DNA of 58,651 bases from Chloroflexota bacterium (GTDB taxonomy: Bacteria > Chloroflexota > Limnocylindria > P2-11E): positions 1 to 58,651 of the forward strand of contig JAGWSB010000003.1 in NCBI GenBank assembly GCA_028876375.1. Reading direction: 5' to 3'. Below are positions 43,728 to 58,189 of the stretch, piece after piece. Position 1 is the first letter of the stretch; every line of letters begins with the position of its first letter. The position numbers and the translations under genes were made by a program. A model generated the notes under the pieces. It was not told the DNA's origin. It ran no database searches and saw nothing but the letters and a program-made list of their open reading frames with translations.

Positions 43728-45038
43728 GTGTATCGGTCGGCGGTCCGCACCCTCCCGCGCGAGCCGCGACGGTCGTCGGGCTTCGCGGCGGTCCTCTCCG
43801 GCATCCTGCCCGGCCTGGGACAGATGTACGGAGCGAGGTGGAAGAGCGGGCTGTTCATGCTCGCGATCCCGTTCGTCGGTCTCGCCCTGTTCGTCGGGCT
43901 CGCGCTGCTCGTCGGTCCGCTCGCGTCGGCGGTCGTACGCCGCGCGACGCTCTTCGTGGTCATCGTCATCGGTGGGCTCTACGCGTTCCACATCGTCATC
44001 GTCGCCGACGCCTTCGCCATCCGGACCGGAGCCGGCGAACGCCGGCGCCCTCTCGACTTCGCGCTCCTCCTCGCGGTCATCCTGGGGCTGTCGCTCGGCT
44101 ACCTCTCCGTCTACCGCCACTCGCAGGCCTGGGCGAACGTCCTCACCGCCGTCTTCGAGCCCGGCGGCCGCACCCTCGGCGCCGGCACGTCGGCGAGCGA
44201 CACGACCGCGCCGGGATGGTCCGGCAGTGAGCGCCTCAACATCCTCGTCCTCGGCGTCGACACGCGCGAGGAGGACCCGCAGAGCTGGAACACCGACACG
44301 ATGATCGTCCTCAGCATCGATCCCATGGGAAAGACCGCCGCGATGCTCTCGATCCCGCGCGACACCCTCGTCGACATCCCCGGTCACGGAAAGGACAAGA
44401 TCAACTCGACGTTCGCGTACGCGGGCTCGATCGCGAAGGGGCCCGACCTCGCGCGCCGCACCGTGTCGCAGTTCCTCGGCATCCCCATCCACGCCTATGC
44501 CGTCATCGACTTCAACGCGTTCCAGCAGACCATCGACGGCGTCGGCGGCGTCCTCGTGGACGTGCAGCGTCCGCTCCGCGACGAGTCGTATCCGGATTGG
44601 GCCTCGGGCGTCGTGCGCATCCAGTTCAACGCCGGCCCGCAGCTCATGGACGGCGCGAACGCCCTGCAGTTCGCCCGCTCGCGCCACGAGAGCAACGACT
44701 TCAGCCGCGCGCAGCGCCAGCAGCAGGTGATCTTCGCGCTCCGTCAGCGCATCGCGCAGCAGGGCCTCTTCCGGCTGCCGTCGGTCATGGAGCGGGTCGG
44801 ACCGCTGGTGCGCACGGACTTCGACCCCGGGAACGTCCTGCCTCTGGCGCGCACGGTCCTCGGCATATCGAGCGCGCGCATCCACAGCGACGTGCTGCTC
44901 CCGTGCGACTCTCCCGGCACCTCGCACTGCGAGCTCACCGAGCAGAACGGGGCGAGCGGGTACTACCTCATCCCGGACGTCGCGAAGGTGCGCGCCTTCA
45001 CCGAGCAGCTCTTCTCGGGGACGGCCTCGGTCGAGTAG
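43728..45038 (+). CDS. LCP (LytR-CpsA-Psr) family protein with N-terminal TM helices
   Basis: RLNILVLGVD, NTDTMIV, SIPRD, KINS, ALQFARSRH, SDFSRAQRQQQ. Confidence 0.9.
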   Translation: MYRSAVRTLPREPRRSSGFAAVLSGILPGLGQMYGARWKSGLFMLAIPFVGLALFVGLALLVGPLASAVVRRATLFVVIVIGGLYAFHIVIVADAFAIRTGAGERRRPLDFALLLAVILGLSLGYLSVYRHSQAWANVLTAVFEPGGRTLGAGTSASDTTAPGWSGSERLNILVLGVDTREEDPQSWNTDTMIVLSIDPMGKTAAMLSIPRDTLVDIPGHGKDKINSTFAYAGSIAKGPDLARRTVSQFLGIPIHAYAVIDFNAFQQTIDGVGGVLVDVQRPLRDESYPDWASGVVRIQFNAGPQLMDGANALQFARSRHESNDFSRAQRQQQVIFALRQRIAQQGLFRLPSVMERVGPLVRTDFDPGNVLPLARTVLGISSARIHSDVLLPCDSPGTSHCELTEQNGASGYYLIPDVAKVRAFTEQLFSGTASVE

Positions 45039-46019
45039 CTAGCCTCGCGCTCCCGCGTACACCGGCGTCACCCACGAGCGATAGCGCGGCTCATCGCCGT
45101 GGACCGCCTTGAAGTACACGTCGCGGATGCGCTTCGTGATCGGTCCGAGCGCTCCGTCGCCGATCGCGCGGTGGTCGATGCTCTCGATGTAGTTCAGCTG
45201 CGTCCCGGTGCCGCAGAGGAACGCCTCGTCGGAGATGTAGAGCTCGGTCCGGTCGACCGTGCGCACCTGGACCGGGATGCCCTCGTCGTGCGCGATGCGC
45301 ATGAGGCTCGAGCGAACGATGCCCTCGAGGATGTTGTCCGTACCCGGAGGCGTGATGAGCGTGCCGTCGCGCACGATGAACAGGTTCTCCGCGCTGCCCT
45401 CGGACACGCTCCCGTCGGCGTTGAGGACGATCGCCTCGTCGTAGCCGGCCTCGACGGCCTCCGTCTTGGCCAGCGCCGCGTTGACGTACGCGCCCGTCAG
45501 CTTGCTGCGCGCGGGGATCGCGTTGTCGTCGGTCCGTCGCCACGACGAGACGCCGCAGCGGACACCGCGGTCGATGTCGAGGTACGTCCCGAAGGGGATG
45601 GCGAACACGGTGAAGGAGTCCTCGAGGTCGTGGAGGCGTACGCCGATGACCTCGCTGCGCTTGAAGGCGATCGGCCGGATGTACGCGTCCTCTTTGTAGC
45701 CCGAGCGCCGCAGCACCTCGAGCGTGATCTCCGACAGCTCGTCCACGCTCTGCGGCAGCGAGATGCGCATGATCCGGCACGACCGGTGGATCCGCTCGAA
45801 GTGCTCGCGCAGGTGGAGCACGTACAGCTGGGTCTCCGCCGCGTTCCAGTAGGCGCGGATCCCTTCGAACACGCCGGTCCCGTAGTTGAACGCGTGGGTC
45901 ATGACGCTGACCTTCGCGTCCTTGAGCGGGACGAACCTCCCGTCGAGGTAGGCCCATGCGCTTTCGGAGGCGGTCCCCTGCTTCGGCCTCGCGGCTGGAC
46001 GCTCGAGCTCCTTGACCAT
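45039..46019 (-). CDS. ilvE: Branched-chain amino acid aminotransferase
   Basis: THAFNYGTGVFEGIRAY, YIRPI, SKLTGAYVN, EGSAENLF, ILEGIVR, FLCGTG. Confidence 0.93.
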   Translation of the reverse strand: MVKELERPAARPKQGTASESAWAYLDGRFVPLKDAKVSVMTHAFNYGTGVFEGIRAYWNAAETQLYVLHLREHFERIHRSCRIMRISLPQSVDELSEITLEVLRRSGYKEDAYIRPIAFKRSEVIGVRLHDLEDSFTVFAIPFGTYLDIDRGVRCGVSSWRRTDDNAIPARSKLTGAYVNAALAKTEAVEAGYDEAIVLNADGSVSEGSAENLFIVRDGTLITPPGTDNILEGIVRSSLMRIAHDEGIPVQVRTVDRTELYISDEAFLCGTGTQLNYIESIDHRAIGDGALGPITKRIRDVYFKAVHGDEPRYRSWVTPVYAGARG

Positions 46020-46149
46020 TCCTCGCTCCTTATACCTGTCCGGTCGCACGGACCGCAGGTCCCGTGCCGCCCTTTTCAGATCGTGACATTAGCGCGTTCC
46101 GAAGGTCCCGAGCCTCTCGACGAATGCTGGAACGGACAGGGCCGAGCAG

Positions 46150-46175
46150 TACCATCCCGCCGGCTGGTCTGACCA
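46150..46175 (+). promoter_or_regulatory. oxlT promoter -10 (TACCAT) and FadR-type operator TGGTCTGACCA
   Basis: TACCAT 46150-46155; TGGT-CTG-ACCA 46165-46175 matches the TGGT-N3-ACCA FadR-subfamily consensus. Confidence 0.7.
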
Positions 46176-46237
46176 AGGCTTCAGGATCCGATGTTCCCCG
46201 GCGATCCGGGGACATACATCCAAAGTGGAGGTTGGGC

Positions 46238-47809
46238 GTGAGTTCCGCGACCACCGCGGCACCCATCAGCGAACGCGAGGACCTGCTTCAGAACCGTTGG
46301 CTCATCCTCGTGGCGGGCATCGTCTGCATGATCGCGATCGCGAACTACCAGTACGGGTGGACGCTCTTCGTGACCCCGCTCCAGAAGGCTCTCCACGCGA
46401 ACAGCGCGGCACCGATCCAGGTCGCGTTCAGCGTCTTCGTGCTCCTCGAAACGTGGCTCGTCCCCTTCGAGGGCTGGCTCGTGGACAAGTTCGGCCCTCG
46501 GAACCTCGTCCTGATCGGCGGCATCCTCGCCGGCGCGGGCTGGTACTTCTCCGGCAGCGCGACGACGCTCACGCAGCTCTACCTGGCATACGCGCTCTCC
46601 GGCGTCGGAGCCGGCATCGTCTACGGAACGTCGGTCGGGAACGGGCTCAAGTGGTTCCCCGACCGCCGCGGGCTGGCCGCGGGCCTCACCGCGATGGGAT
46701 TCGGCGCCGGCGCCGCTCTCACCGTGCTGCCGATCCAGAGCATGATCAGCAGCGCCGGCTATCAGGCGACGTTCCAGCAGTGGGGGATCATGCAAGGGAT
46801 CGTCGTCGTCATCGCCGCGCTCTTCCTCAAGGCACCGCCGAAGGGCTGGCTCCCCCGGACCTGGACGCTCGAGGCGGCCGCCAACGAGGTCCGCAAGCGC
46901 CAGACCGCGCTCGACTTCACGCCGGGCGAGATGGCGGCGACGAAGCAGTTCTGGATCCTCTACGTCATGATGACCTTGGTCGCGACCGGCGGCCTCATGG
47001 CGACCGCTCAGATCGGTCCCATGGCCGCGAGCTTCAAGGTCGACAAGTTCCCCATCTCCTTCCTCTGGATCCAGATGACCGCGCTCACCTTCGCGCTCTC
47101 GGCGAACAACGTCATCAACGGCGTGTGCCGTCCGTTCTGGGGCTGGGTCTCGGACCACATCGGCCGCGAGAGAACGATGTCGCTCGCCTTCGGCCTCGAG
47201 GGCCTGGCGATCACCCTCCTCATCCTCTCGCTCCAGCTCTTCAAGAGCCCCATCCTGTTCGTGGTCATGAGCGCGTTCAGCTTCTTCGGCTGGGCCGAGA
47301 TCTTCTCGCTCTTCCCCGCGACGGCGGGAGACTTCTTCGGCCGCAAGTACGCGACCACGAACTACGGCTTCCTCTACACGGCGAAGGGCACGGCCTCCGT
47401 CTTCGTGCCGATCGGCTCCGCGCTCGCCGCGGGTCAAGCGTTCGACTTCCGCGCCGACGTGCTCTTGCTCATCGGCGCGCTGCTGATCTTCTTCACGATG
47501 TTCCTCGCTCCGACGGCGCTGCGCCTCGCGCTCAGCCCGACCGTCCGTAACGCGCTCTTCGTGGTGGCCGGGGTGTTCCTCCTGTACGGGCTGGCCCTCA
47601 CGGTCGTCCCCACGATGTGGGCGCCGTTCGCGCTCAAGCCGGTCGCGCCGAACGTCGGCTGGGGCGGCGTGTTCGCGGTCGCCGTCGTCTTCGACTGGTG
47701 CGCCGCGATCTTCGCGTTCTTCATCCTGCGCCGGATGGCCATCCCGGCGGCGGGCACGCGGCCGAGCGTCGGCCGGGAGCCCGCGGTGGCGCCCGCGCCC
47801 GCCGACTGA
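46238..47809 (+). CDS. oxlT: Oxalate/formate antiporter family (OFA/OxlT-like) MFS transporter with extra TM hairpin
   Basis: NRWLILVAGIVCMIAIANYQYGWTLF, KWFPDRRGLAAG, NGVCRPFWGWVSDHIGRE, FGRKYATTNYGFLYTAKG; GTG 46238 after SD GGAGG. Confidence 0.82.
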   Translation: MSSATTAAPISEREDLLQNRWLILVAGIVCMIAIANYQYGWTLFVTPLQKALHANSAAPIQVAFSVFVLLETWLVPFEGWLVDKFGPRNLVLIGGILAGAGWYFSGSATTLTQLYLAYALSGVGAGIVYGTSVGNGLKWFPDRRGLAAGLTAMGFGAGAALTVLPIQSMISSAGYQATFQQWGIMQGIVVVIAALFLKAPPKGWLPRTWTLEAAANEVRKRQTALDFTPGEMAATKQFWILYVMMTLVATGGLMATAQIGPMAASFKVDKFPISFLWIQMTALTFALSANNVINGVCRPFWGWVSDHIGRERTMSLAFGLEGLAITLLILSLQLFKSPILFVVMSAFSFFGWAEIFSLFPATAGDFFGRKYATTNYGFLYTAKGTASVFVPIGSALAAGQAFDFRADVLLLIGALLIFFTMFLAPTALRLALSPTVRNALFVVAGVFLLYGLALTVVPTMWAPFALKPVAPNVGWGGVFAVAVVFDWCAAIFAFFILRRMAIPAAGTRPSVGREPAVAPAPAD

Positions 47810-47831
47810 CCTTCGCGCGACCGAAGCGCCT

Positions 47832-47862
47832 CGAAGGGCGGTGGCTGTGCCACCGCCCTTCG
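47832..47862 (+). terminator. GC-rich hairpin after oxlT, probable terminator
   Basis: CGAAGGGCGGTGGC-TGT-GCCACCGCCCTTCG, 14-bp stem, weak U tract. Confidence 0.55.
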
Positions 47863-47886
47863 TCGTTTCCCGCACACTGGCGCGGC

Positions 47887-48975
47887 ATGACCCCGCTCGA
47901 CGTCGTCTTCGTCGTGGGCGCGTTCGCGCTCATCCTCGTCGGAGCCGAGCTCTTCACGGGCGGGATCGAATGGCTGGGCATCAAGCTCGACCTCTCCCAC
48001 GGCGCGACGGGGAGCGTCCTGGCGGCCATCGGCACGGCGACGCCCGAGACGCTCATCCCCATCGTGGCCATCCTCTTCACGCGCAGCGCCGCCGCGGACG
48101 AGATCGGCGTCGGCGCCATCCTCGGAGCGCCCTTCATGCTCGGTACGCTCGTCATGTTCCTCATCGGGCTGACGGCGTACGTGCTCCGCCGCCGGCGGCG
48201 GCGTACGACGCTCCGGATCGACGCCGCGCACGCGTCGCGCGACCTCGCCTTCTTCGTCGTCCTCTACGCGCTCGCTCTCACGCTCGCGCTCCTCCCGCGG
48301 GACCTCCGTTTCCTGAAGGGCTACGTCGGCTGGGTCTTCCTGCCCGCCTACTTCGTGTACCTCTATCTCGTCCTGCGCACGCCCAAGCGGACCACGAAGC
48401 TCGACCGCGAGGAGGAGAAGGAAGAGGAGGAGGCCTTCGAGGACCTCTCCTTCGCCGCCTACCTCCGCCGCCTCGGCGCCAAGGTGCGGACGGGGTCGCC
48501 GCCGCTGTGGCTGATCCTCACCCAGGTGGTCATCTCGTTCGGGGCGATCCTCGTCGGCGCGCGGTTCTTCGCCACGTTCGTCGACGACCTGTCCACGGCG
48601 CTGGGGCTCGACGCGCTCCTCGTCGCGCTGATCCTCGCGCCGCTCGCGACGGAGCTGCCGGAGGCGGCCAACAGCCTCATCTGGACGCGCGAGGGCAAGG
48701 ACGTGATCGCTCTCGGGAACGTCGCGGGCGCGATGGTCTTCCAGTCGACGATCCCCGTCTCGATCGGCGTGCTCCTCACGCCGTGGCAGCTCGGACCCTA
48801 CGGGACGATCGCCGCCGTGTTCGCGCTCCTCTCCGGTGTGGTCGTCTACGCCCAGATCCGGCTGCGCGCGCGCCAGAACTCGCTGCCCCTGTCATCGCTC
48901 ATGATCGGCGGCAGCCTGTACGTCCTTTTCATCGTCTATGTGGTCTGGACGGTGGCGACCGGCCAGACCTCTTGA
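47887..48975 (+). CDS. Sodium/calcium exchanger (CaCA, YrbG-like) family antiporter
   Basis: Two alpha repeats: LAAIGTATPET and LAPLATELPE...GNVAG. Confidence 0.85.
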   Translation: MTPLDVVFVVGAFALILVGAELFTGGIEWLGIKLDLSHGATGSVLAAIGTATPETLIPIVAILFTRSAAADEIGVGAILGAPFMLGTLVMFLIGLTAYVLRRRRRRTTLRIDAAHASRDLAFFVVLYALALTLALLPRDLRFLKGYVGWVFLPAYFVYLYLVLRTPKRTTKLDREEEKEEEEAFEDLSFAAYLRRLGAKVRTGSPPLWLILTQVVISFGAILVGARFFATFVDDLSTALGLDALLVALILAPLATELPEAANSLIWTREGKDVIALGNVAGAMVFQSTIPVSIGVLLTPWQLGPYGTIAAVFALLSGVVVYAQIRLRARQNSLPLSSLMIGGSLYVLFIVYVVWTVATGQTS

Positions 48976-49105
48976 GCGGGACCTCCGGACCATGCGGGAG
49001 CGACCGCTCGACCGGTCCGGCGGCATGCGCCTGAGATAGCATCCGGCGCGGCCTCCCCGACCGACGCTTCCCGGGCAGGCGGGGCCAGAGGGAGGGCATG
49101 CCTTC

Positions 49106-50188
49106 ATGAAGCGTCTCCTCGCGTTCGCACTCATGACCATGACCGTCGCCGCCGCCTGCGGCGGCGGGGCCGGGACCGCGAGCCCGAGCCCCTCGGCGGC
49201 CGCGACCAGCGCGGCACCGAGCAAGACGGCCGCGCCGACGGCGGCGGCCGTCAAGGTCGGCCTCGTCACCGACGTCGGGGGCCTCAACGACAAGAGCTTC
49301 AACGCGCTGGCGAACCAGGGTCGCCTCGACGCCGAGAAGGACCTCAAGGTCCAGACGTCGGTCACCGAATCCAAGAAGCAGGAGGACTACGTCCCGAACC
49401 TGACCAACTACGCGCAGCAGAAGTACGACCTCGTCATCGCCGTCGGCTTCCTCATGACGAACGCCACGTGGAAGGTCGCGAAGCAGTTCCCCGACGTCAA
49501 GTTCGCGATCATCGACGGCGCTCCGGCGAACGACAAGGGCGACACCGAGAACCTGCCGAACGTCGCGAACCTGTTCTTCAAGGAGCAGGAGGCCGGATAC
49601 CTCGTCGGCGTCATCGCCGCGACGATGGCGAAGAACAAGGTGGGCAAAGCGACGCACAACACGGTGTGCTCGATGGGCGGCATCCCCATCCCGCCGGTCG
49701 ATCGCTACATCGCGGGCTACCAGGACGCGGTCAAGACCGTCAGCCCGACGACGACGATCCTCAACGGCTACAGCAATGACTTCGTCGACCAGGCCAAGGG
49801 CAAAGAGGTCGGGCTCAACCACATCAGCAAGAACTGCGACATCCTCTTCCAGGTCGCGGGCGCCAGCGGCCTCGGCTACATCCAGGCCGCGAAGGACAAG
49901 GGCGTCTACGCCATCGGCGTCGACGCCGACCAGGCCTACGTCGCCCCCGGAACGGTGCTCACGAGCGCGCTCAAGCGCGTCAACAAGGCGGTCTACGACA
50001 CCATCAAGGCCGTCGTGAACAAGACCTTCAAGGCCGGCGACAACTCCTTCAACGCGACGAACGACGGCGTCGGCTACGGCACGCTCGACCCGGCGGTCCC
50101 CGCCGACGCGAAGGCCGCCGCCGACAAGGCCCTCGCGGACATCAAGAGCGGGAAGATCACGCCCAAGGACGCGGTCCAGGTCAAGTAA
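49106..50188 (+). CDS. BMP-family ABC substrate-binding lipoprotein (nucleoside-type)
   Basis: Lipobox VAAAC, DVGGLNDKSFN, FKEQEAGYLVG, AGASGLG, IGVDADQ. Confidence 0.92.
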   Translation: MKRLLAFALMTMTVAAACGGGAGTASPSPSAAATSAAPSKTAAPTAAAVKVGLVTDVGGLNDKSFNALANQGRLDAEKDLKVQTSVTESKKQEDYVPNLTNYAQQKYDLVIAVGFLMTNATWKVAKQFPDVKFAIIDGAPANDKGDTENLPNVANLFFKEQEAGYLVGVIAATMAKNKVGKATHNTVCSMGGIPIPPVDRYIAGYQDAVKTVSPTTTILNGYSNDFVDQAKGKEVGLNHISKNCDILFQVAGASGLGYIQAAKDKGVYAIGVDADQAYVAPGTVLTSALKRVNKAVYDTIKAVVNKTFKAGDNSFNATNDGVGYGTLDPAVPADAKAAADKALADIKSGKITPKDAVQVK

Positions 50189-50192
50189 GGCC

Positions 50193-51323
50193 TTGACCGT
50201 CCACGCACAGACGTCACCGACGGGGCCGCCAGCGGCCCCGTCGGTGCGTCAACCGAGCTTCGACTGGACGCAGGGTCCCGCGATCCCGGTGGTGTCGGTC
50301 CTATTCGCGCTCGTGCTCGGCGGCCTCTTCGTGTGGATCAGCGGGCACGACCCCATCCAGGCGTACGCGGCGCTCTTCCGCGGCGCGTTCGGCAGTCCCT
50401 ACGACGTCAGCGAGACGCTCGTCATCGCCGTTCCCCTCCTGCTCGCCGGCCTCTCCGTCGCCGTCGCGTTCCGCGCCGGGCTCTTCAACATCGGCGCGCA
50501 GGGGCAGCTCCTCGTCGGCGCGGTCGCCGCGGGCTGGGTCGGCGCGCTGTGGCCCGACCTTCCCGGGATCCTCCTCCTCCCGCTCACCCTCGCCGCGGGC
50601 GTTCTCGGCGGCGCGGCCTACGGCGGGATAGCCGGGTGGCTGAAGGCCGCGCGCGGGGTGAACGAGGTGATCACGACGATCATGCAGAACTACACCATCG
50701 TCTTCGTCATGCACTGGCTGCTCCAGAACGGTCCGATGCAGGCGCCGAACGCGTTCGGCACGCCGGCGTCGGCGCCGATCGGCGCCGGCGCGATCCTCCC
50801 GATCGTCCTCCCCGACTTCCTCGTCCCCTCGTCGCGCCTCCACGCGGGGATCGTCCTCGCGCTCCTGGCGACGCTCGGCTTCTGGTTCCTGCTCTGGCGG
50901 ACCTCGCTCGGGTACGAGCTGCGCGCGGTGGGGCTCGGGATGCGCGCGGCGGCGCAGGCGGGGATCGACCCGCGGAAGCGGATGGTGATCGTGATGGCCA
51001 TCGCCGGCGGCTTCGCCGGCCTCGCGGGCATGATCCAGGTGAGCGGGCTCTTCCACCGCGTGTACGACGGGTTCTCCGCGGGCTTCGGCTTCGACGCCAT
51101 CGCGGTCGCGCTCCTCGGCAAGAACACCCCGGTGGGCGTCCTGCTCTCGGCGCTCCTCTTCGCCGCCTTCTCGCGCGGCGGGACGCTCATGCAGTCCGAC
51201 GCCGAGATCTCGTCCCACCTCGTCGAGATCGTCGAGGCCCTCGTGCTGTTCGTCATCGCCGCCGAGACCGTCGTGCGCGCCGTCGCGCGGCGCTGGGGCC
51301 GACCCGTCAAGGCGGCGAGCTAG
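50193..51323 (+). CDS. Nucleoside ABC transporter permease 1
   Basis: AFRAGLFNIGAQGQ, GVNEVITTIM, GFDAIAVALLG. Confidence 0.9.
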   Translation: MTVHAQTSPTGPPAAPSVRQPSFDWTQGPAIPVVSVLFALVLGGLFVWISGHDPIQAYAALFRGAFGSPYDVSETLVIAVPLLLAGLSVAVAFRAGLFNIGAQGQLLVGAVAAGWVGALWPDLPGILLLPLTLAAGVLGGAAYGGIAGWLKAARGVNEVITTIMQNYTIVFVMHWLLQNGPMQAPNAFGTPASAPIGAGAILPIVLPDFLVPSSRLHAGIVLALLATLGFWFLLWRTSLGYELRAVGLGMRAAAQAGIDPRKRMVIVMAIAGGFAGLAGMIQVSGLFHRVYDGFSAGFGFDAIAVALLGKNTPVGVLLSALLFAAFSRGGTLMQSDAEISSHLVEIVEALVLFVIAAETVVRAVARRWGRPVKAAS

Positions 51324-52262
51324 GTGGAGGTCCTCATCGGCGCGGGCGTCCTCGCCGCGACCATCCGCCTCGCCACGCCCGTCGCCCTCGCCGCGCTGGG
51401 CGGCGTCGTCACCGAGCGCTCCGGCGTCGTGAACATCGCGCTCGAGGGCTGCATGCTCGTCGGCGCCTTCTTCGGCGTGTTCGCCGCCGACAAGACCGGC
51501 AGCCTCCCCGCGGCGCTCGCGGTCGCGATCCTCGCGGGCCTCGCGCTCGCGGCGATGCACGCCGTCGCCGCGATCACGTTCCGCGCCGACCAGATCGTGA
51601 GCGGCATGGCGCTCAACATCCTGGCGCTCGGGCTCACCTCCTACCTCGACTACCAGCTGTACAGCAGCACCGGGACGCCGCCGACGATCCCGCTCGTGCC
51701 CAACGTCCACCTCGGCTTCCTGGAGAAGGTGCCCGTCCTCGGCGGCGCGGTCGGCGACCAGAGCGCGATCGTGTGGGTGACGCTCGCGATCGTCGTGTTC
51801 CTCCAGCTCTTCCTCTTCCGCACCGTCCCCGGCCTGCGCCTGCGCTCGGTCGGGGAGCACCCGCGGGCGGCCGACACGCTCGGCATCGACGTCCGCCGCA
51901 CGCGCTACTGGGCCGTCCTCGCGTCGGGCGCGCTCGCCGCGCTCGGCGGGGTGTACCTCTCGCTCTCGGTCGCCGGCTCCTTCAGCGACAACATGACGAA
52001 CGGCAAGGGGTTCATCGGGCTGGCCGCGATGATCTTCGGACGCTGGACGCCGCTCGGCGCTCTCGGCGCCGCGCTCGTCTTCGGCTACGGCGACGCGCTC
52101 TCCGTCTCGCTCCAGGGTGTCGAGGTCGCGGGCTTCGTCTTCCCCGTGCAGCTCCTCTCGACCATCCCCTATCTGCTCACCATCCTCGCCGTCGCCGGCT
52201 TCGTCGGCAGGTCGCGGATGCCGGCCGCCGACGGCCAGCCGTACGAGAGCGAAGGGCACTGA
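51324..52262 (+). CDS. Nucleoside ABC transporter permease 2
   Basis: ERSGVVNIALEG, GLRLRSVGEHP, GKGFIGLAAMIFGRW, TIPYLLT. Confidence 0.92.
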   Translation: MEVLIGAGVLAATIRLATPVALAALGGVVTERSGVVNIALEGCMLVGAFFGVFAADKTGSLPAALAVAILAGLALAAMHAVAAITFRADQIVSGMALNILALGLTSYLDYQLYSSTGTPPTIPLVPNVHLGFLEKVPVLGGAVGDQSAIVWVTLAIVVFLQLFLFRTVPGLRLRSVGEHPRAADTLGIDVRRTRYWAVLASGALAALGGVYLSLSVAGSFSDNMTNGKGFIGLAAMIFGRWTPLGALGAALVFGYGDALSVSLQGVEVAGFVFPVQLLSTIPYLLTILAVAGFVGRSRMPAADGQPYESEGH

Positions 52263-53779
52263 TGGACACGCCGATCGTCGAGATGGCCCGCATCAGCAAG
52301 CGGTTCGGCGATCTGCAGGCGCTCGCCGAGGTCGACCTCACCGTCCACAAGGGCGACATCCACGCGCTCGTGGGCGAGAACGGCGCGGGCAAGACGACGC
52401 TCATGAACATCCTCTACGGCCTCTACCGCCCGGACGCGGGGACCATCCGCGTGCGCGGCACGGAAGCGCACATCGCGGGGCCGCGCGACGCCATCGCGCT
52501 CGGGATCGGCATGATCCACCAGCATTTCATGCTCGTTCCGCCCCTCACCGTCGCCGAGAACGTCGTGCTCGGCGACGAGCGCGGCGGCCCGGTCCTCGAC
52601 ACGCGCGGCATCGAGGCGCGCGTCGCCGAGCTGGAGAAGCGATTCGGCATCCAGGCCGAACCCCGCGCGAAGATCGAGGACGTTCCGCTGGGGATCCAGC
52701 AGCGCGTCGAGATCCTCAAGGTCCTCTACCGCGGCAGCGAGATCCTCATCTTCGACGAGCCGACGGCCGTGCTCACGCCGCAGGAGGTCGACGATCTGTT
52801 CCACATCGTCCGTACGCTCCGCGACGAAGGAAAGACCGTGATCCTCATCACGCACAAGCTCCGCGAGGTGATGGCGGTCTCCGACCACGTCACGGTCCTG
52901 CGCGAAGGCCGCAACGCCGCCCACCTCGTCACGAAGGAGACGGACCCGAGGGCGATCGCGGTCGCGATGGTCGGGCGAGAGCTGCGCGACATCCGCGTCC
53001 GGCCGGGCAACGTCGGCCCGGCCGTGCTCGAGATCACGAGCCTCAGCGCCGAGTCCGACCGCGGTGGCCTCGCGCTGAAGGGCGTCGACGTCGAGGTCCA
53101 CGCCGGCGAGGTCGTGGGCATCGCCGGCGTCGGCGGGAACGGCCAGAGCGAGCTCGCGCAGTGCATCCTCGGGCTGCGCAAGGTCACCGGCGGTGTCATC
53201 AAGGTCGGCGGCAGCGACGTCGCCCACGACGATCCGCGCCGCACGCGACAGCGCGGCGTGGCCTACGTCCCCGAGGACCGTCGGGCGGAAGGCCTCGTGC
53301 TCCCGTTCACCCTCGCCGACAACTTCATCCTCGGCCGGCAGGACCAGCCGCCGTACGCGCGTCGCGGCATCCTCCAGGGCCGGGTCATCCGTCGCGAGGG
53401 CGAGCGCCTGGCCAAGGAGTTCGACGTGCGCCCGCCCGACCCCGACGTCGAGGTGGGAACGCTGTCGGGTGGGAACCAGCAGAAGGTCGTCCTCGGCCGC
53501 GAGATCTCCGAGTCTCCAAGGCTCATCGTCGCGAACCAGCCGACGCGCGGCCTCGACATCGCGGCGACGGAGTACGTCCACGAGCGCCTCCTCGAGCAGC
53601 GCTCGCGCGGCTGCGCGATCCTCCTCATCTCGAGCGAGCTCGACGAGATCCTCGACCTCTCCGATCGGATCGCGGTGATGTTCGAGGGTCGCATCGTCGC
53701 CGTCCTGCCGGCCGCCGAGGCCACCGAGGAGCGGCTGGGCCTCCTCATGGCCGGCCACGTCGAGGGGGTCCCGGCCTAA
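52262..53779 (+). CDS. Nucleoside/sugar ABC transporter ATPase (two NBDs)
   Basis: GENGAGKTT, FDEPTAVL, AGVGGNGQ, LSGGNQQK, NQPTRGLD. Confidence 0.94.
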   Translation: MDTPIVEMARISKRFGDLQALAEVDLTVHKGDIHALVGENGAGKTTLMNILYGLYRPDAGTIRVRGTEAHIAGPRDAIALGIGMIHQHFMLVPPLTVAENVVLGDERGGPVLDTRGIEARVAELEKRFGIQAEPRAKIEDVPLGIQQRVEILKVLYRGSEILIFDEPTAVLTPQEVDDLFHIVRTLRDEGKTVILITHKLREVMAVSDHVTVLREGRNAAHLVTKETDPRAIAVAMVGRELRDIRVRPGNVGPAVLEITSLSAESDRGGLALKGVDVEVHAGEVVGIAGVGGNGQSELAQCILGLRKVTGGVIKVGGSDVAHDDPRRTRQRGVAYVPEDRRAEGLVLPFTLADNFILGRQDQPPYARRGILQGRVIRREGERLAKEFDVRPPDPDVEVGTLSGGNQQKVVLGREISESPRLIVANQPTRGLDIAATEYVHERLLEQRSRGCAILLISSELDEILDLSDRIAVMFEGRIVAVLPAAEATEERLGLLMAGHVEGVPA

Positions 53780-53826
53780 GGGCGAAGCCCGATCGGCGCC
53801 GATCCATTTCCGACCTCCTCGCGGGG

Positions 53827-53887
53827 TTGACCGTGGTCACCGCCCAACGTACCGTTCCCCGGTCGGGTGGTCAGGCCACCTGACCGG
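53827..53887 (+). promoter_or_regulatory. Sigma70 promoter and overlapping FadR-type operator palindrome
   Basis: TTGACC 53827-53832, 17-bp spacer, TACCGT 53850-53855; CCGGTCGGGTGG-TCAGG-CCACCTGACCGG 53859-53887 containing TGGTCAGGCCA 53868-53878. Confidence 0.78.
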
Positions 53888-53913
53888 AACCAGTGACGAA
53901 GGCGGGAGGTGCG

Positions 53914-54675
53914 ATGGCTCTCGTTCAGCCCGTCCGGCGTGACCGGCTCTATCAGGGCATCGTCGCGCAGATCGAGGGTCTCCTCGAGCGCGGCGAGCTG
54001 AAGGCGGGCGATCAGCTGCCGCCCGAGCGCCAGCTGGCGGAGCAGCTCCAGGTCAGCCGCGCGTCGGTGCGCGAAGCGCTCCGATCCCTCGAGCTCCTCG
54101 GGATCGTCGAGACGCACGCGGGCGGCGGAACGTTCGTGAGGCACGCCCAGCCCGACGACCTGGCGCGACCCCTCACCAGCCTCATCAGCCGCGGCCACAC
54201 CATCGCCGACGTCATCGACGTCCGCGGTCTGCTCGAGCCCGCCATCGCGGAGCGCGCCGCGCGCAACATCGCGCCCGCCGAGATCTCCGAGCTGCGCGAG
54301 ATCCTCGCCGCGCAGGAGAAGAAGGTCGCGGCCGGCGAGCCCTACGTCGAGGAGGACACGCGCTTCCACGAGCTCATCGGCCAGGCGGCGGGCAACGAGC
54401 TCCTGGTCACGGTCGTGGGGGTGATCTGGGACGTCCTCCGCTCCTCGCGTGAGCAGTGGCTGCAGAACGAGGACCGCGCCCATGCTTCGCTCGAGGCCCA
54501 TCGGCGGATCCTCGTCGCGCTCGAGAAGCACGAGCCCGCGGCCGCCAAGGCGGCGGCGGCGGACCACATCCGCGCCGTCGGGGAAGGGATCCTCCGCCTC
54601 CTCGGGGAGGACGGGGCATCCCGGCGGGCGCACCCGGGACGGACACACAAGGATCAGGAGGTGGACACGGCGTGA
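53914..54675 (+). CDS. FadR-subfamily GntR regulator (PdhR/LldR/GlcC-like)
   Basis: GDQLPPERQLAEQLQVSRASVREALRSL; FCD with DTRFH, H and H metal-type residues. Confidence 0.93.
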   Translation: MALVQPVRRDRLYQGIVAQIEGLLERGELKAGDQLPPERQLAEQLQVSRASVREALRSLELLGIVETHAGGGTFVRHAQPDDLARPLTSLISRGHTIADVIDVRGLLEPAIAERAARNIAPAEISELREILAAQEKKVAAGEPYVEEDTRFHELIGQAAGNELLVTVVGVIWDVLRSSREQWLQNEDRAHASLEAHRRILVALEKHEPAAAKAAAADHIRAVGEGILRLLGEDGASRRAHPGRTHKDQEVDTA

Positions 54676-55805
54676 CCCAAGCGACAGCAGCACCGCCACA
54701 GACCGCGGCGGCGACGGACATCACGATCGAGGTCGTCTACCGCGGGATCTTCCAGAAGACGCTCGCGCAGCGCATCACGCGCGGCGTCGTCCTGGCCGCC
54801 CGGCAGAAGGGACTGCCGGGGACCGCGTTCTCGCGCTACGGCGACTCGCCGGAGCGCAACGGCGTGCCCGCGAAGCAGTTCGCCGTCGTCGCCGTGAACG
54901 ACATCGAGCTCGAGGCCTCGATGGCGCGCTACGAGCCGGCCGTCGTGGACGTCTCGGTCGCCGTCGACGACACGCTCGTCAAGGGCGTCGAGTCGTGGGC
55001 CTGGTACGGGCGCCAGCCGATCTGGAAGCCCGTGCGCCCGAACGGCGTCGTCCTCGTGACCAGCGACAAGTCGCCCGACGAGATCGTCGCGCAGACGGAC
55101 AAGACGGACCGTCCCTACACGCTCGGCGTGGTCCCCGGCGGCGCGTCCTTCGCCGGACTGTGGGTCTACAAGGACGACCACACCGATTGGCGCGTCCTCG
55201 GCGCGCTGTCCAAGGTCCTTCCCGAGTGGCTTCCGCTCGAAGAGGTCAAGGCGCAGGTGCGGCGGCAGACCAAGGACGAGAACGCCGTCGCGTCCGTCCA
55301 GTCCGGCCACGACGCGACGAAGCTCCGCCAGGTCAAGGTCGGCGAGGGCACCGACGCGCACGAGAAGCTCGGCTTCACGAAGCCCGGCTGGACGACGATG
55401 CGCACCGGCGTCATCGTCGACGCGCGGAAGCCCGGCGAGCGCAATCCGCAGTACAAGCGCTACGCCACGCGCACCCAGCGTCCCGTCGTCAACTTCGACA
55501 CCTGCATCAAGTGCACGATGTGCTGGCTCGACTGCCCCGACGAGTGCTTCGAGGTGACGCCGAGCGGCCACTTCGAGGTCGTCTACGAGGCCTGCGTGGG
55601 CTGCGGCATCTGCGCGCAGGTGTGTCCGGTCAAGGACTGCATCGTCATGGTCGACGAGCTCAAGTTCGACTCCAACAAGCTCGTCTTCCCGGTATGGGAG
55701 AAGGACCGCAACACGTACAACGCGTGGTTCGAGAGGACGAGCGGCCGCTCGGCCGCGCCCCCCACGGGCGAGAAGGCCGCTGTCGCGGCGGGAGGTGACG
55801 AGTAA
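54672..55805 (+). CDS. 2-oxoacid:ferredoxin oxidoreductase gamma-delta fusion subunit, oxalate oxidoreductase delta-like
   Basis: N-terminal gamma-like domain (YGDSPERNGVP) plus TRTQRPV and two CxxCxxCxxxCP ferredoxin motifs (CIKCTMCWLDCP, CVGCGICAQVCP). Confidence 0.85.
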   Translation: MTQATAAPPQTAAATDITIEVVYRGIFQKTLAQRITRGVVLAARQKGLPGTAFSRYGDSPERNGVPAKQFAVVAVNDIELEASMARYEPAVVDVSVAVDDTLVKGVESWAWYGRQPIWKPVRPNGVVLVTSDKSPDEIVAQTDKTDRPYTLGVVPGGASFAGLWVYKDDHTDWRVLGALSKVLPEWLPLEEVKAQVRRQTKDENAVASVQSGHDATKLRQVKVGEGTDAHEKLGFTKPGWTTMRTGVIVDARKPGERNPQYKRYATRTQRPVVNFDTCIKCTMCWLDCPDECFEVTPSGHFEVVYEACVGCGICAQVCPVKDCIVMVDELKFDSNKLVFPVWEKDRNTYNAWFERTSGRSAAPPTGEKAAVAAGGDE

Positions 55806-57037
55806 TGGCTGTCGCCGTCAAGACCACGGAGACCAGCGACGTCCAGACCGAGCAGCTCATGACGGGCTGCGAGGCCATCGCCGAGGCGATCCGCCTCGCG
55901 GACGTCGACGTCATGGCCGCCTTCCCCATCCGGCCGTACGACACGGTCATGCAGGCCGCCGCGAAGCTCATCGCCAACGGCAAGCTGGACTGCGAGTACA
56001 TCGTCGCCGACGGCGAGCACAGCCAGTTCGAGATCGTGAAGCACGCCTGCGCCGTCGGCTCGCGCGTCTTCGTCGGCTCCTCGGGCGTCGGCTGGTTCTA
56101 CGCCTTCGAGGCCATCGCCGTCACCGCCGGCCTGCGCCTTCCGGTCGTCGCCATCTGCGGCAACCGCGCCCTCGACGACCCCGGCGCGTTCGGCACCGAG
56201 CACAACGACTCGCTCGCCGTCCGCGACCTCGGATGGCTGCTCCCGTGGGCCGAGACGGCGCAGGAGTGCCTCGACCTCGCGCTCATGGCGTGGCGCGTCG
56301 GCGAGGACAAGCGCGTCTCGCTGCCGGTCGCCATCGGCCTGGACGGCGGCTTCCTCACCCATTCCCAGCAGCTCGTGAGCGTCCCGACGAAGGCCGCCGC
56401 GGACGCCTACCTTCCGCGCTTCGACCTCGGCGACCGCCTCCTGCACCCCGACAACCCCATCACCATCGCGCCGCAGGTCGACCAGGACTGGCTCATGGAG
56501 ATCCGGCGTCAGAACGACGCGGCGATGCGCCGCGCGCTCGAGGTCATCGCCGAGGCGCACGCGGACCTCAAGAAGCTCTTCGGCCGCGGCGGCGACAGCC
56601 CGTTCCTCGACGAGTACATGACCGATGACGCCGACGTCGTGTTCTTCGGCCAGGGCACGCTCGCCCTGCCGATGAAGGTCGCCATCCGGCGCCTGCGCAA
56701 GCAGGGCCACAAGGTCGGACTCGTCCGGCTCAAGTGGTTCCGGCCCTTCCCGACCGACGAGGTCGTCAGGAGCCTCTCGCGCTTCAAGGCCGTCGGCATC
56801 GTGGACCGCGACTACAGCTTCGGCTCGCCGTACTACGGCGGCGTCCTCTACAACGAGGTGCGCTCCGCCCTGTACTCGCGCGACGAGCGTCCGACCATCG
56901 TCGGCTTCGTCGCCGGCCTCGGCGGGCGCGAGATCGACCAGACCATGGCCCAGGACATCTACGACAAGACGGCCGCCGCCGCGGCGGGCGGCCTGGCGGC
57001 CGGCGACCAGTGCCACTGGATCGGAGTTCGGGAGTGA
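55805..57037 (+). CDS. 2-oxoacid:ferredoxin oxidoreductase alpha subunit, oxalate oxidoreductase-like
   Basis: RLADVDV, FPIRPY, DGEHSQ, GSSGVG, NRALDDPGAFGTEH, RVGEDKRV, FRPFP, AGLGG. Confidence 0.9.
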   Translation: MAVAVKTTETSDVQTEQLMTGCEAIAEAIRLADVDVMAAFPIRPYDTVMQAAAKLIANGKLDCEYIVADGEHSQFEIVKHACAVGSRVFVGSSGVGWFYAFEAIAVTAGLRLPVVAICGNRALDDPGAFGTEHNDSLAVRDLGWLLPWAETAQECLDLALMAWRVGEDKRVSLPVAIGLDGGFLTHSQQLVSVPTKAAADAYLPRFDLGDRLLHPDNPITIAPQVDQDWLMEIRRQNDAAMRRALEVIAEAHADLKKLFGRGGDSPFLDEYMTDDADVVFFGQGTLALPMKVAIRRLRKQGHKVGLVRLKWFRPFPTDEVVRSLSRFKAVGIVDRDYSFGSPYYGGVLYNEVRSALYSRDERPTIVGFVAGLGGREIDQTMAQDIYDKTAAAAAGGLAAGDQCHWIGVRE

Positions 57038-57133
57038 GAACGAAGAGCGAGCGAGATCCGGCTTCGCCGGGCGAGCAAGCGACAAACGATGCACGCGGCG
57101 CAGCCGCGAGCCTGCACTAGGAGGGAGATGGAA

Positions 57134-58189
57134 ATGGCTGTGGAAGCACCGACCGGGACCGGCACCCTCCCCCAGATCAAGGGCGTCAAGGAGGTCCCCT
57201 ACGACGAGCTCTTCGTCTCCGGCCACCGCACGTGCCAGGGCTGCGAGTCGGCGCTCGTCATGCGTCACATGGTCAAGGCGTCGGGTCCGCGCACGATCGT
57301 GCTCGGCTCGACGGGCTGCATGTACGTCGCGAACACGACGTACTACTCGACCCCGTGGGTGGTGCCGTGGATGCACACCCAGCTGGGCGCGGCCGGATCG
57401 GCCGCGCTCGGGACCGCCGCGGGCCTCAAGGTCCTCATGCGCAAGGGCAAGCTCGCTCGCGAGAAGATCAACGTCATCGCGTTCTGCGGCGACGGCGGCG
57501 GAGCGGACATGGGGATCGGCGCGATCTCCGCGGCGCTGACGCACAAGGAGTACGACCTCCTCGTCCTCCTCTACGACAACGAGTCGTACGCGAACACCGA
57601 CATCCAGCTGTCGAGCCAGACGCCGTGGGGCGCGGTCACGACGTTCTCTCCGACCGGGAGCGAGCGCCGGATCATGCACACGCGCTGGAAGAAGAACGTC
57701 CCCGGCATGCTCGCGGCCGGCCACCCCGAGTCCCGCTACATCGCCGCGGGCTGCGCGGCCTACGCCGTCGACCTGATGAACAAGATCCGCAAGGCGCTCG
57801 AGGTCGGCGGTCCGACGTTCGTGCACACGCTCGACCCGTGCCCCAAGGGCTGGGACTACCACCCGCAGTACAGCCAGGAGCTCGGCCACCTCGCCGTCGA
57901 GGCGGGGATCTGGCCGCTCTACGAAGTGCTGGACGGCGTCGTGAACCTCACCGGCCCGACGCGGCAGATCGCCGAGGGCCGCAAGAAGCGCAAGCCCGTC
58001 GAGGACTACCTGCGCCGGCAGGGCCGCTTCGCGCACTTCACCACGGAGGACGTCGAGCACTTCCAGGCCGAGGTCGACAAGATGTGGGAGGAGTGGCTCA
58101 TCCCCGGCGTCATCCCGTTCACCATCCCGCAGAAGGACGTGACCCTCCTCAACATCGACAAGAAGAAGCCGCTGCACGCGACCGCCTGA
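57134..58189 (+). CDS. 2-oxoacid:ferredoxin oxidoreductase beta (TPP-binding) subunit, oxalate oxidoreductase-like
   Basis: GHRTCQGC, TGCMYVANT, TPP motif GDG...YDNESYANT, GHPE, PCPKGW. Confidence 0.9.
   Translation: MAVEAPTGTGTLPQIKGVKEVPYDELFVSGHRTCQGCESALVMRHMVKASGPRTIVLGSTGCMYVANTTYYSTPWVVPWMHTQLGAAGSAALGTAAGLKVLMRKGKLAREKINVIAFCGDGGGADMGIGAISAALTHKEYDLLVLLYDNESYANTDIQLSSQTPWGAVTTFSPTGSERRIMHTRWKKNVPGMLAAGHPESRYIAAGCAAYAVDLMNKIRKALEVGGPTFVHTLDPCPKGWDYHPQYSQELGHLAVEAGIWPLYEVLDGVVNLTGPTRQIAEGRKKRKPVEDYLRRQGRFAHFTTEDVEHFQAEVDKMWEEWLIPGVIPFTIPQKDVTLLNIDKKKPLHATA

Follow-up and report, generated by a model that had tools for sequence, protein, structure and literature searches.

The contig JAGWSB010000003.1 of an uncultured soil Chloroflexota bacterium from the class Limnocylindria (assembly GCA_028876375.1), analyzed here over 58,651 nucleotides (nt) and referred to as the window, carries two copies of a short palindromic box, a predicted operator, each placed directly downstream of a conserved -10 box. 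One operator (O-T) precedes the gene for an OxlT-type transporter of the major facilitator superfamily (MFS), and the other (O-R) precedes the gene for a FadR-subfamily GntR regulator, which is followed by the genes for the three subunits of an oxalate-oxidoreductase-like enzyme. It is likely that the local FadR-type repressor binds both operators, represses transcription from them, and is released by a small carboxylate, probably oxalate. The sequences directly show the motifs and where they lie, that both promoters keep them across the family, and which domains the encoded proteins contain. From these we infer that the local regulator is the protein that binds the boxes, that it acts as a repressor, and that its effector is oxalate or a close relative. 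As a predicted small regulon for carboxylic-acid import and oxidation, the system is well supported but ordinary, with textbook regulatory logic; the points of interest are the exchange of the transporter at a fixed operator, the composite operator at the regulator promoter, and a connection of this uncultured class with oxalate oxidation.

Predicted operators at two conserved promoters

The promoter and operator elements, in positions of the window, are as follows.

46080-46091, unstranded: conserved ATTGTGACA-like element, here ATCGTGACATTA, a conserved block in the transporter-upstream alignment
46150-46155, + strand: -10 box TACCAT of the transporter promoter; in 19 aligned upstream regions TAnnnT has an invariant A and an invariant final T
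46165-46175, unstranded: operator O-T, perfect palindrome TGGTCTGACCA; sole perfect copy genome-wide with a conserved core; predicted at about +3 to +13
46196-46211, + strand: hairpin CCCCGG-cgat-CCGGGG in the 5'-untranslated region (5'-UTR), between the operator and the ribosome-binding site; read from the sequence
53827-53832, + strand: -35 box TTGACC of the regulator promoter; TTGAC fully or almost fully invariant across the 31 aligned orthologous regions
53850-53855, + strand: -10 box TACCGT of the regulator promoter; TAnnnT nearly invariant in both ortholog alignments
53859-53887, unstranded: composite operator O-R, a 29-bp palindrome with the core TGGTCAGGCCA at 53868-53878 and outer GGTC/GACC half-sites 8 bp away on each side

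At the transporter promoter, TACCAT (46150-46155) is followed after 9 nt by TGGTCTGACCA (46165-46175), exactly as had been reported in a first-pass annotation of this DNA. The sequence TGGTNNNACCA occurs once in the window compared with 0.07 expected, and a search for TGGTCTGACCA with up to one mismatch gives 3 strand-hits, corresponding to 2 sites, compared with 0.34 expected (equalled by 1 of 100 shuffles). The genome-wide motif scan that had been proposed identifies the transporter box as the only perfect TGGTC[A/T]GACCA in the whole 2.6-Mb genome (71.5% G+C) and as the top match, with 20.8 bits, to a position weight matrix built from the sites of relatives.

The first-pass annotation had made its claim depend on conservation of the motif upstream of orthologs, and the motif is conserved at the regulator promoter in every ortholog examined, and 19 of 21 genomes have it at the transporter promoter. 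The latter number is composed of 17 of 19 aligned transporter-upstream regions together with the loci L118 and L119, all with an intact -10 box and GGTC[A/T]GACC. The 19 aligned regions have a mean identity of 33%. Within them the -10 box reads TACGAT, TACCAT, or TAGGAT with the A and the final T invariant, and GGTC[A/T]GACC is found 6-9 nt past it in the 17 regions whether tctC or the MFS gene follows. The exceptions are G012, with a one-base insertion, and G025, in which the box is degenerate, and in several regions the first box is followed by another 7-10 nt further on. In L118 and L119, which are MFS-type loci, there are exactly two GGTCWGACC cores each in 15-19 kb, one before the MFS gene and one before the regulator gene. 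As a negative control, no box is present at a 75%-identical MFS homolog located in an unrelated context without the regulator. The genome G004 provides a weak footprint because its MFS-upstream region is 87% identical to that of the window.

Two further features of this region were observed. The 5'-UTR hairpin is found at the same place in G004 and L118 with different stem letters, an apparent compensation. In most relatives the ATTGTGACA(C) element (here ATCGTGACATTA) is found 50-70 nt before the transporter -10 box; it may serve as the -10 region for the divergent aminotransferase gene or as the site of another factor with a TGTGA half-site.

The regulator promoter has the arrangement TTGACC (53827-53832), 17 nt, TACCGT (53850-53855), 12 nt, and TGGTCAGGCCA (53868-53878), the box having one mismatch. 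This spacing and the enclosing 29-bp palindrome (53859-53887), whose two 12-nt arms are 92% complementary and flank 5 nt, again agree with what the first-pass annotation had described. Among 25 genomes of the family and order, 19 have a regulator ortholog (59-91% identity), and 30 contigs of metagenome-assembled genomes also carry one, which corresponds to about 44 distinct genomes after overlaps. The regions upstream of these genes were compared in alignments of 20 and 31 orthologous regions. The flanks are saturated, with a mean column identity of 35-43%. Kept across these Candidatus Limnocylindria genomes are the -35 TTGAC, the -10 TAnnnT, and, 8-13 nt past the latter, the near-invariant 20-nt box cTGGTCAGACCACCTGACCA, in which the palindrome TGGTC-N-GACCA is joined by an extra GACCA half-site 8 bp further downstream. 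A mirror-image GGTC located 8 bp upstream of the core in the genus of the window and its nearest relatives extends the site to the 29-bp palindrome. Both boxes of the window are placed 9-12 nt past a conserved -10 box, at a predicted position of about +3 to +16 over the predicted transcription start.

The regulator and its predicted mode of action

The genes served by the two promoters are listed below.

46238-47809, + strand: OxlT-type MFS transporter, 523 amino acids; TIGR04259 501.5 bits; PDB code 8hpj (OxlT), E 9e-70
53914-54675, + strand: FadR-subfamily GntR regulator, 253 amino acids, winged helix-turn-helix and FCD domains (PF00392, PF07729)
54672-55805, + strand: oxalate-oxidoreductase-like delta subunit with a C-terminal 2x[4Fe-4S] domain; best match NF045790, 96 bits; PDB code 5c4i_B, E 3.8e-17
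55805-57037, + strand: oxalate-oxidoreductase-like alpha subunit; PDB code 5c4i_A, E 2.3e-99
57089-58189, + strand: oxalate-oxidoreductase-like beta subunit, binding thiamine pyrophosphate; best match NF045792, 343 bits

In the proposed mechanism the regulator (53914-54675) would bind TGGTC-N-GACCA as a dimer, with two cooperating dimers at its own promoter. O-T (46165-46175) would act just past the -10 box of the carboxylate-uptake gene, here the OxlT-type MFS gene, and O-R (53859-53887) just past that of the operon encoding the regulator itself and the three-subunit enzyme. As both sites cover the predicted transcription start, the bound repressor would block RNA polymerase or promoter escape. 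When a small carboxylate binds to the FCD domain, the repressor would be released, and uptake, oxidation, and the repressor would then rise together in a negative autoregulatory loop. A box just downstream of the -10 is the classic position for steric repression, and an autoregulated repressor is favored because of this position, which matches that of Corynebacterium glutamicum LldR (CgLldR). The extra half-sites at the regulator promoter probably recruit a second dimer for tighter or more cooperative autoregulation, by analogy with sites 1 and 2 of LldR and with NanR.

The regulator has an N-terminal GntR winged helix-turn-helix domain (PF00392, 72.4 bits with a cut-off of 27) and a C-terminal all-helical FCD effector domain (PF07729, 102.2 bits with a cut-off of 24.3). 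Its best PDB relatives are 6az6, NanR, CgLldR, and PdhR, and the helix-turn-helix sequence LPPERQLAEQLQVSRASVREAL is closely similar to those of CgLldR and Escherichia coli PdhR. The scores remain below the NCBIfam equivalog cut-offs for NanR (126.5 compared with 260), LldR (111.4 compared with 311), PdhR (101.9 compared with 330), and GlcC (95.2 compared with 301), and the regulator is predicted to work like these four proteins while being an ortholog of none. The E. coli proteins PdhR, LldR, and GlcC are FadR-subfamily sensors of pyruvate, lactate, and glycolate, respectively. Both TGGTCTGACCA and TGGTCAGGCCA fit, near an own or neighboring promoter, the FadR-subfamily operator consensus TNGT-N3-ACNA (PMC11472048). 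The first-pass assignment of TGGT-N3-ACCA to the LldR/PdhR type of site holds literally, with TGGTCTGACCA being the experimentally demonstrated operator of CgLldR (PMC2602784; also quoted in PMC11472048).

In C. glutamicum this operator is located at -4..+13 of the MFS permease-lldD promoter and is bound by one LldR dimer with a dissociation constant of ~81 nM, and an adjacent weak site recruits a second dimer cooperatively (PMC2602784). The locus in the window resembles the CgLldR system (cgl2917/cg3226 permease-lldD; PDB code 2DI3) in having an identical operator core that overlaps the transcription start (predicted here), an MFS carboxylate permease as the first regulated gene, a regulator with the winged helix-turn-helix and FCD fold, and a second, weaker adjacent site, here putative, for cooperative binding of a second dimer. 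In distinction from CgLldR, the regulator is a distant relative only (E 8e-15 to 2DI3; 111 bits for the LldR model compared with the cut-off of 311), its gene leads the enzyme operon with autoregulation predicted through the 29-bp palindrome of four half-sites, the enzyme is an oxalate-oxidoreductase-like ferredoxin oxidoreductase where C. glutamicum has L-lactate dehydrogenase, and the host belongs to the Chloroflexota and not to the Actinomycetota.

The E. coli PdhR, LldR, and GlcC systems have in common with the window the TGGT-N3-ACCA-type palindromes and autoregulated operons (predicted here) starting with the regulator gene, and the recognition helix is very similar to that of PdhR (PDB code 5kvr, E 1e-13). 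They differ in the regulated genes and in that the regulator is below their equivalog cut-offs. E. coli NanR (PDB code 6ON4) is the best NCBIfam match (126 bits) and the second-best PDB match. NanR binds repeated hexamers ~8-9 bp apart cooperatively, which resembles the 8-bp-spaced GGTC/GACC half-sites of O-R. Differences with NanR occur in the score, which is below the subfamily cut-off of 260 bits, in the NanR half-site (GGTATA), in its effector (sialic acid), and in the other genes that it regulates.

Transporter exchange, substrate, and rival explanations

Of 21 genomes, 17 have tctC directly behind the transporter promoter and four have an OxlT-type MFS gene there. An ortholog of the MFS gene is present in only 1 of 40 relatives (G004), and the loci L118 and L119 carry the MFS version with 77 and 82% protein identity. 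In other relatives (e.g. G016:C118 and G008:C1; L052 and L053) the slot divergent from the aminotransferase gene and upstream of the Na+/Ca2+-exchanger gene is occupied by tctC-tctA, which belong to the tripartite tricarboxylate transporter, and that tctC is absent from the window genome and from G004. The transporter ancestral to the regulon is tctCBA, with the OxlT-type MFS as a replacement seen in four genomes. The first-pass annotation had placed oxlT itself in the regulon, to which this ancestral state is a qualification. The box is kept whichever transporter follows, so the promoter and operator predate the transporter gene now behind them. The similarity of the MFS (64-67% identity) to homologs annotated as Acidobacteriota and Myxococcota, together with a local G+C content of the MFS region (0.64-0.69) below the genome mean, suggests that it was gained by horizontal transfer. 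The exchange of TctCBA for the MFS behind an unchanged promoter and operator offers a clean natural example of modular regulon evolution and argues that both transporters carry the same substrate.

The case for oxalate as that substrate comes from both the transporter and the enzyme. The MFS passes the OxlT equivalog TIGR04259 (501.5 bits with a cut-off of 335), and in the alignment to PDB code 8hpj its segments GVCRPFWG and YTAKGTAS are aligned to Arg-272 and Lys-355 of OxlT, with both residues kept. These are the basic substrate-binding residues of OxlT; the lactate transporter SfMCT has a cysteine at the Lys-355 position. Unlike the Oxalobacter formigenes OxlT system, there is a C-terminal extra of ~100 amino acids and no formate-producing partner, with no formate-yielding enzyme encoded in the locus. 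The extension (47500-47809) is hydrophobic, and this ~520-amino acid form of the MFS is widespread in soil metagenomes. Oxalate oxidoreductase is the best-scoring family for each of the three enzyme subunits, and the delta-alpha-beta gene order is that of the Moorella thermoacetica enzyme. The alpha subunit matches the Moorella protein with E 2.3e-99 compared with 9e-62 for pyruvate:ferredoxin oxidoreductase (PFOR). Its FPIRP segment aligns to YPIRP with Arg-31 kept, and ...GNR aligns to ...ADR109 with Arg-109 kept; the YPIRP motif, in which Arg-31 of the alpha subunit replaces the threonine of YPITP, has been described as unique to oxalate oxidoreductase (PMC5020499). Taken together, oxalate or a very close analog has a chance close to even, perhaps slightly below, of being the effector and substrate.

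Several observations weigh against the proposed regulon or against its assignment to oxalate. All three enzyme subunits remain below the oxalate-oxidoreductase equivalog cut-offs (alpha, 382.6 compared with 500; beta, 343.5 compared with 590; delta, 96.3 compared with 230), and in a further difference from the M. thermoacetica enzyme Asp-116 of the switch/plug loop is replaced by alanine in the alpha subunit (56186-56188), with an aspartate three residues earlier. The oxalate assignment is further weakened by the ancestral transporter being of the TctC type, a group with diverse substrates. These points also speak for the same two-operator mechanism serving a different small acid (2-oxo-, hydroxy-, or dicarboxylic), in which case the enzyme would be another 2-oxoacid:ferredoxin oxidoreductase. 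This explanation draws further on the MFS also passing the L-lactate MFS model (327.8 with a cut-off of 320), on the class IV aminotransferase and the Bmp ATP-binding cassette (ABC) system as conserved neighbors, and on the identical operator serving a lactate regulon in C. glutamicum. The far higher OxlT score of the MFS (501 bits), its lysine at the position of the SfMCT cysteine, the arginine of the YPIRP motif, and the closer match of the alpha subunit to oxalate oxidoreductase than to PFOR all argue in the other direction, and a non-oxalate acid is a serious but less likely possibility. 

The operators themselves are open to other objections. The core at the regulator promoter scores 15.3 bits, a value also reached in the reversed-genome control and thus not alone above chance, and one-mismatch GGTCWGACC cores occur in the window at a chance rate (11 compared with 15.9 expected); the reality of this box for that reason rests on the orthologous alignments. 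The -35 box of the transporter promoter is weak, and the promoter and terminator scan, which used the E. coli consensus, calls neither promoter of the window because each -10 box matches only 3 of 6 consensus bases. The hexamers were accepted on their conservation as a consequence. TGGTC-N-GACCA is a generic FadR-subfamily operator, which distant FadR homologs in the same class carry upstream of themselves and beside unrelated genes, and the genome encodes a 34%-identical FadR-family paralog (contig C32, 20311-20985), present in most relatives, by which cross-recognition of the boxes is conceivable. Binding by this or another FadR-family protein, or control of the two boxes by different regulators, is nevertheless improbable, as both boxes accompany the local regulator gene within a single locus in all genomes examined, even through the transporter swap, and the neighborhood of the paralog has a different palindrome, TGGTAATACCA. 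With the core being generic, it is this co-location through evolution on which the assignment to the local regulator rests. Activation, or activation at one promoter and repression at another, would fit a box found ~40 nt upstream of a TACCAT -10-like hexamer at the Bmp operon in four relatives, a position more typical of activators, but both boxes of the window lie 9-12 nt downstream of the -10 in the classic repressor position seen for CgLldR, and an activator is very improbable. The least credible explanation is a 5'-terminal leader hairpin (GGUCAG-N5-CUGACC) acting as an RNA element in place of a DNA operator. The element lies within the predicted 5'-UTR, and a stem of 6 bp is possible in the regulator leader, with 95% of cells paired, but there is no covariation, 121 of 500 shuffles are as good, and pair 5 is broken without compensation in seven sequences. 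The transporter box has a short palindrome only, and an Rfam scan of 45000-55000 (by E-value) gives no match. A protein-DNA site is favored over the hairpin because the primary sequence is invariant.

The local-repressor model provides a concrete regulon for an uncultured, abundant class of Chloroflexota, in which one regulator would act on two operators and only a few effectors are candidates, and by linking the OxlT-type transporter functionally with the oxalate-oxidoreductase-like enzyme it supports oxalate oxidation by these bacteria. Oxalate is a major soil carbon flux, and to our knowledge the oxalate oxidoreductase pathway has so far been characterized in the acetogen M. thermoacetica. 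No account of this regulon, or of a FadR-type regulator for oxlT or oxalate oxidoreductase, and nothing linking Limnocylindria to oxalate was found in the open literature. It is conceivable, although doubtful for the whole combination, that the locus represents the first described oxalate-responsive FadR-type factor, ferredoxin-dependent oxalate oxidation in soil and freshwater Candidatus Limnocylindria, an unusual 29-bp two-dimer operator of four half-sites spaced by 8 bp, and a fixed regulatory "socket" at which uptake was exchanged horizontally from TctCBA to the OxlT-type MFS. If the effector is oxalate, the regulator-operator pair would be usable as a simple oxalate biosensor.

Neighboring genes and other palindromes

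The remaining features of the locus are as follows.

45039-46049, - strand: class IV aminotransferase (PF01063, E 1.7e-44); orthologs divergent from the transporter gene in most relatives
47833-47861, + strand: GC-rich hairpin after the MFS gene with a 13-bp stem GAAGGGCGGTGGC / GCCACCGCCCTTC; read from the sequence
47888-48975, + strand: Na+/Ca2+ exchanger-family gene (PF01699); ATG start at 47888 read from the sequence; syntenic in relatives
49106-53779, + strand: Bmp-family ABC operon with a binding protein, two permeases, and an ATPase (Pfam)

Many false open reading frames (ORFs) are present in the window because of the high G+C content, and the real frame of the transporter starts at GTG 46238 and not with the ORF at 46225. 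The hairpin at 47833-47861 is likely a terminator that makes the MFS gene monocistronic, and it was missed by the terminator scan because its T-tail is too short. 

The Bmp-type ABC operon is always located between the transporter and the regulator in relatives. In 4 of 10 relatives (G016, G023, G008, and G021) it has a box of its own ~40 nt upstream of TACCAT, which is perfect in one genus and G021 (L052 9499, L053 8413; G016, G008). No box is found upstream of the operon in the window genome (48960-49105) or in G004, and the window genome has either lost this box or never had one. The predicted direct targets in the window genome are the two promoters only. The first-pass annotation had described one regulon with the antiporter and nucleoside ABC genes intervening. 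The conservation of both boxes supports the single regulon, but the ABC operon belongs to the conserved locus and in some relatives has its own box, and while it is indeed of the Bmp type, "nucleoside" is a family label only.

The regulator and delta-subunit genes overlap by 4 nt across the regulator stop codon, and the three enzyme genes, which encode 2-oxoacid:ferredoxin oxidoreductase subunits, are translationally coupled to the regulator gene. A GGAGG ribosome-binding site is placed 6 nt upstream of the regulator ATG. This start codon is ATG in the window (53914), whereas CTG is found at the same position in 39 of 51 aligned ortholog rows, 5-8 nt past a strong GGGAGG. Many of the CTG rows have no in-frame ATG, GTG, or TTG between the CTG and the preceding stop codon, and the arrangement suggests that translation of the repressor gene begins at a conserved non-canonical CTG in these orthologs.

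Perfect boxes in G001:C10 and G003:C112 were rejected as regulon members as they lie in coding sequence (Trp-Ser-Asp-Gln codons; a membrane protein and an M50 protease), and the related box matches in the window genome are likewise in coding sequence. The boxes in G007:C66, G011:C8, and G012:C124 are intergenic and beside unrelated genes (e.g. a DEAD helicase and a UbiD decarboxylase); these were not counted because ~0.6 chance copies are expected per genome. Other FadR-type palindromes occur in the window genome at C88:982, C32:18602, and C79:11337. In the same genome TGGTCATACCA is found in an AT-rich divergent intergenic region and there are two copies of TGGTAATACCA, one of them 1.7 kb from the FadR paralog on C32, and these two palindromes probably belong to separate FadR-family regulons. 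In G012:C124 a UbiD-family decarboxylase gene is preceded by a divergent intergenic region in which a perfect TGGTCAGACCA (L058 3192) directly follows the -10-like hexamer TAGAAT, and this copy could be an extra regulon member or a target of a paralog.

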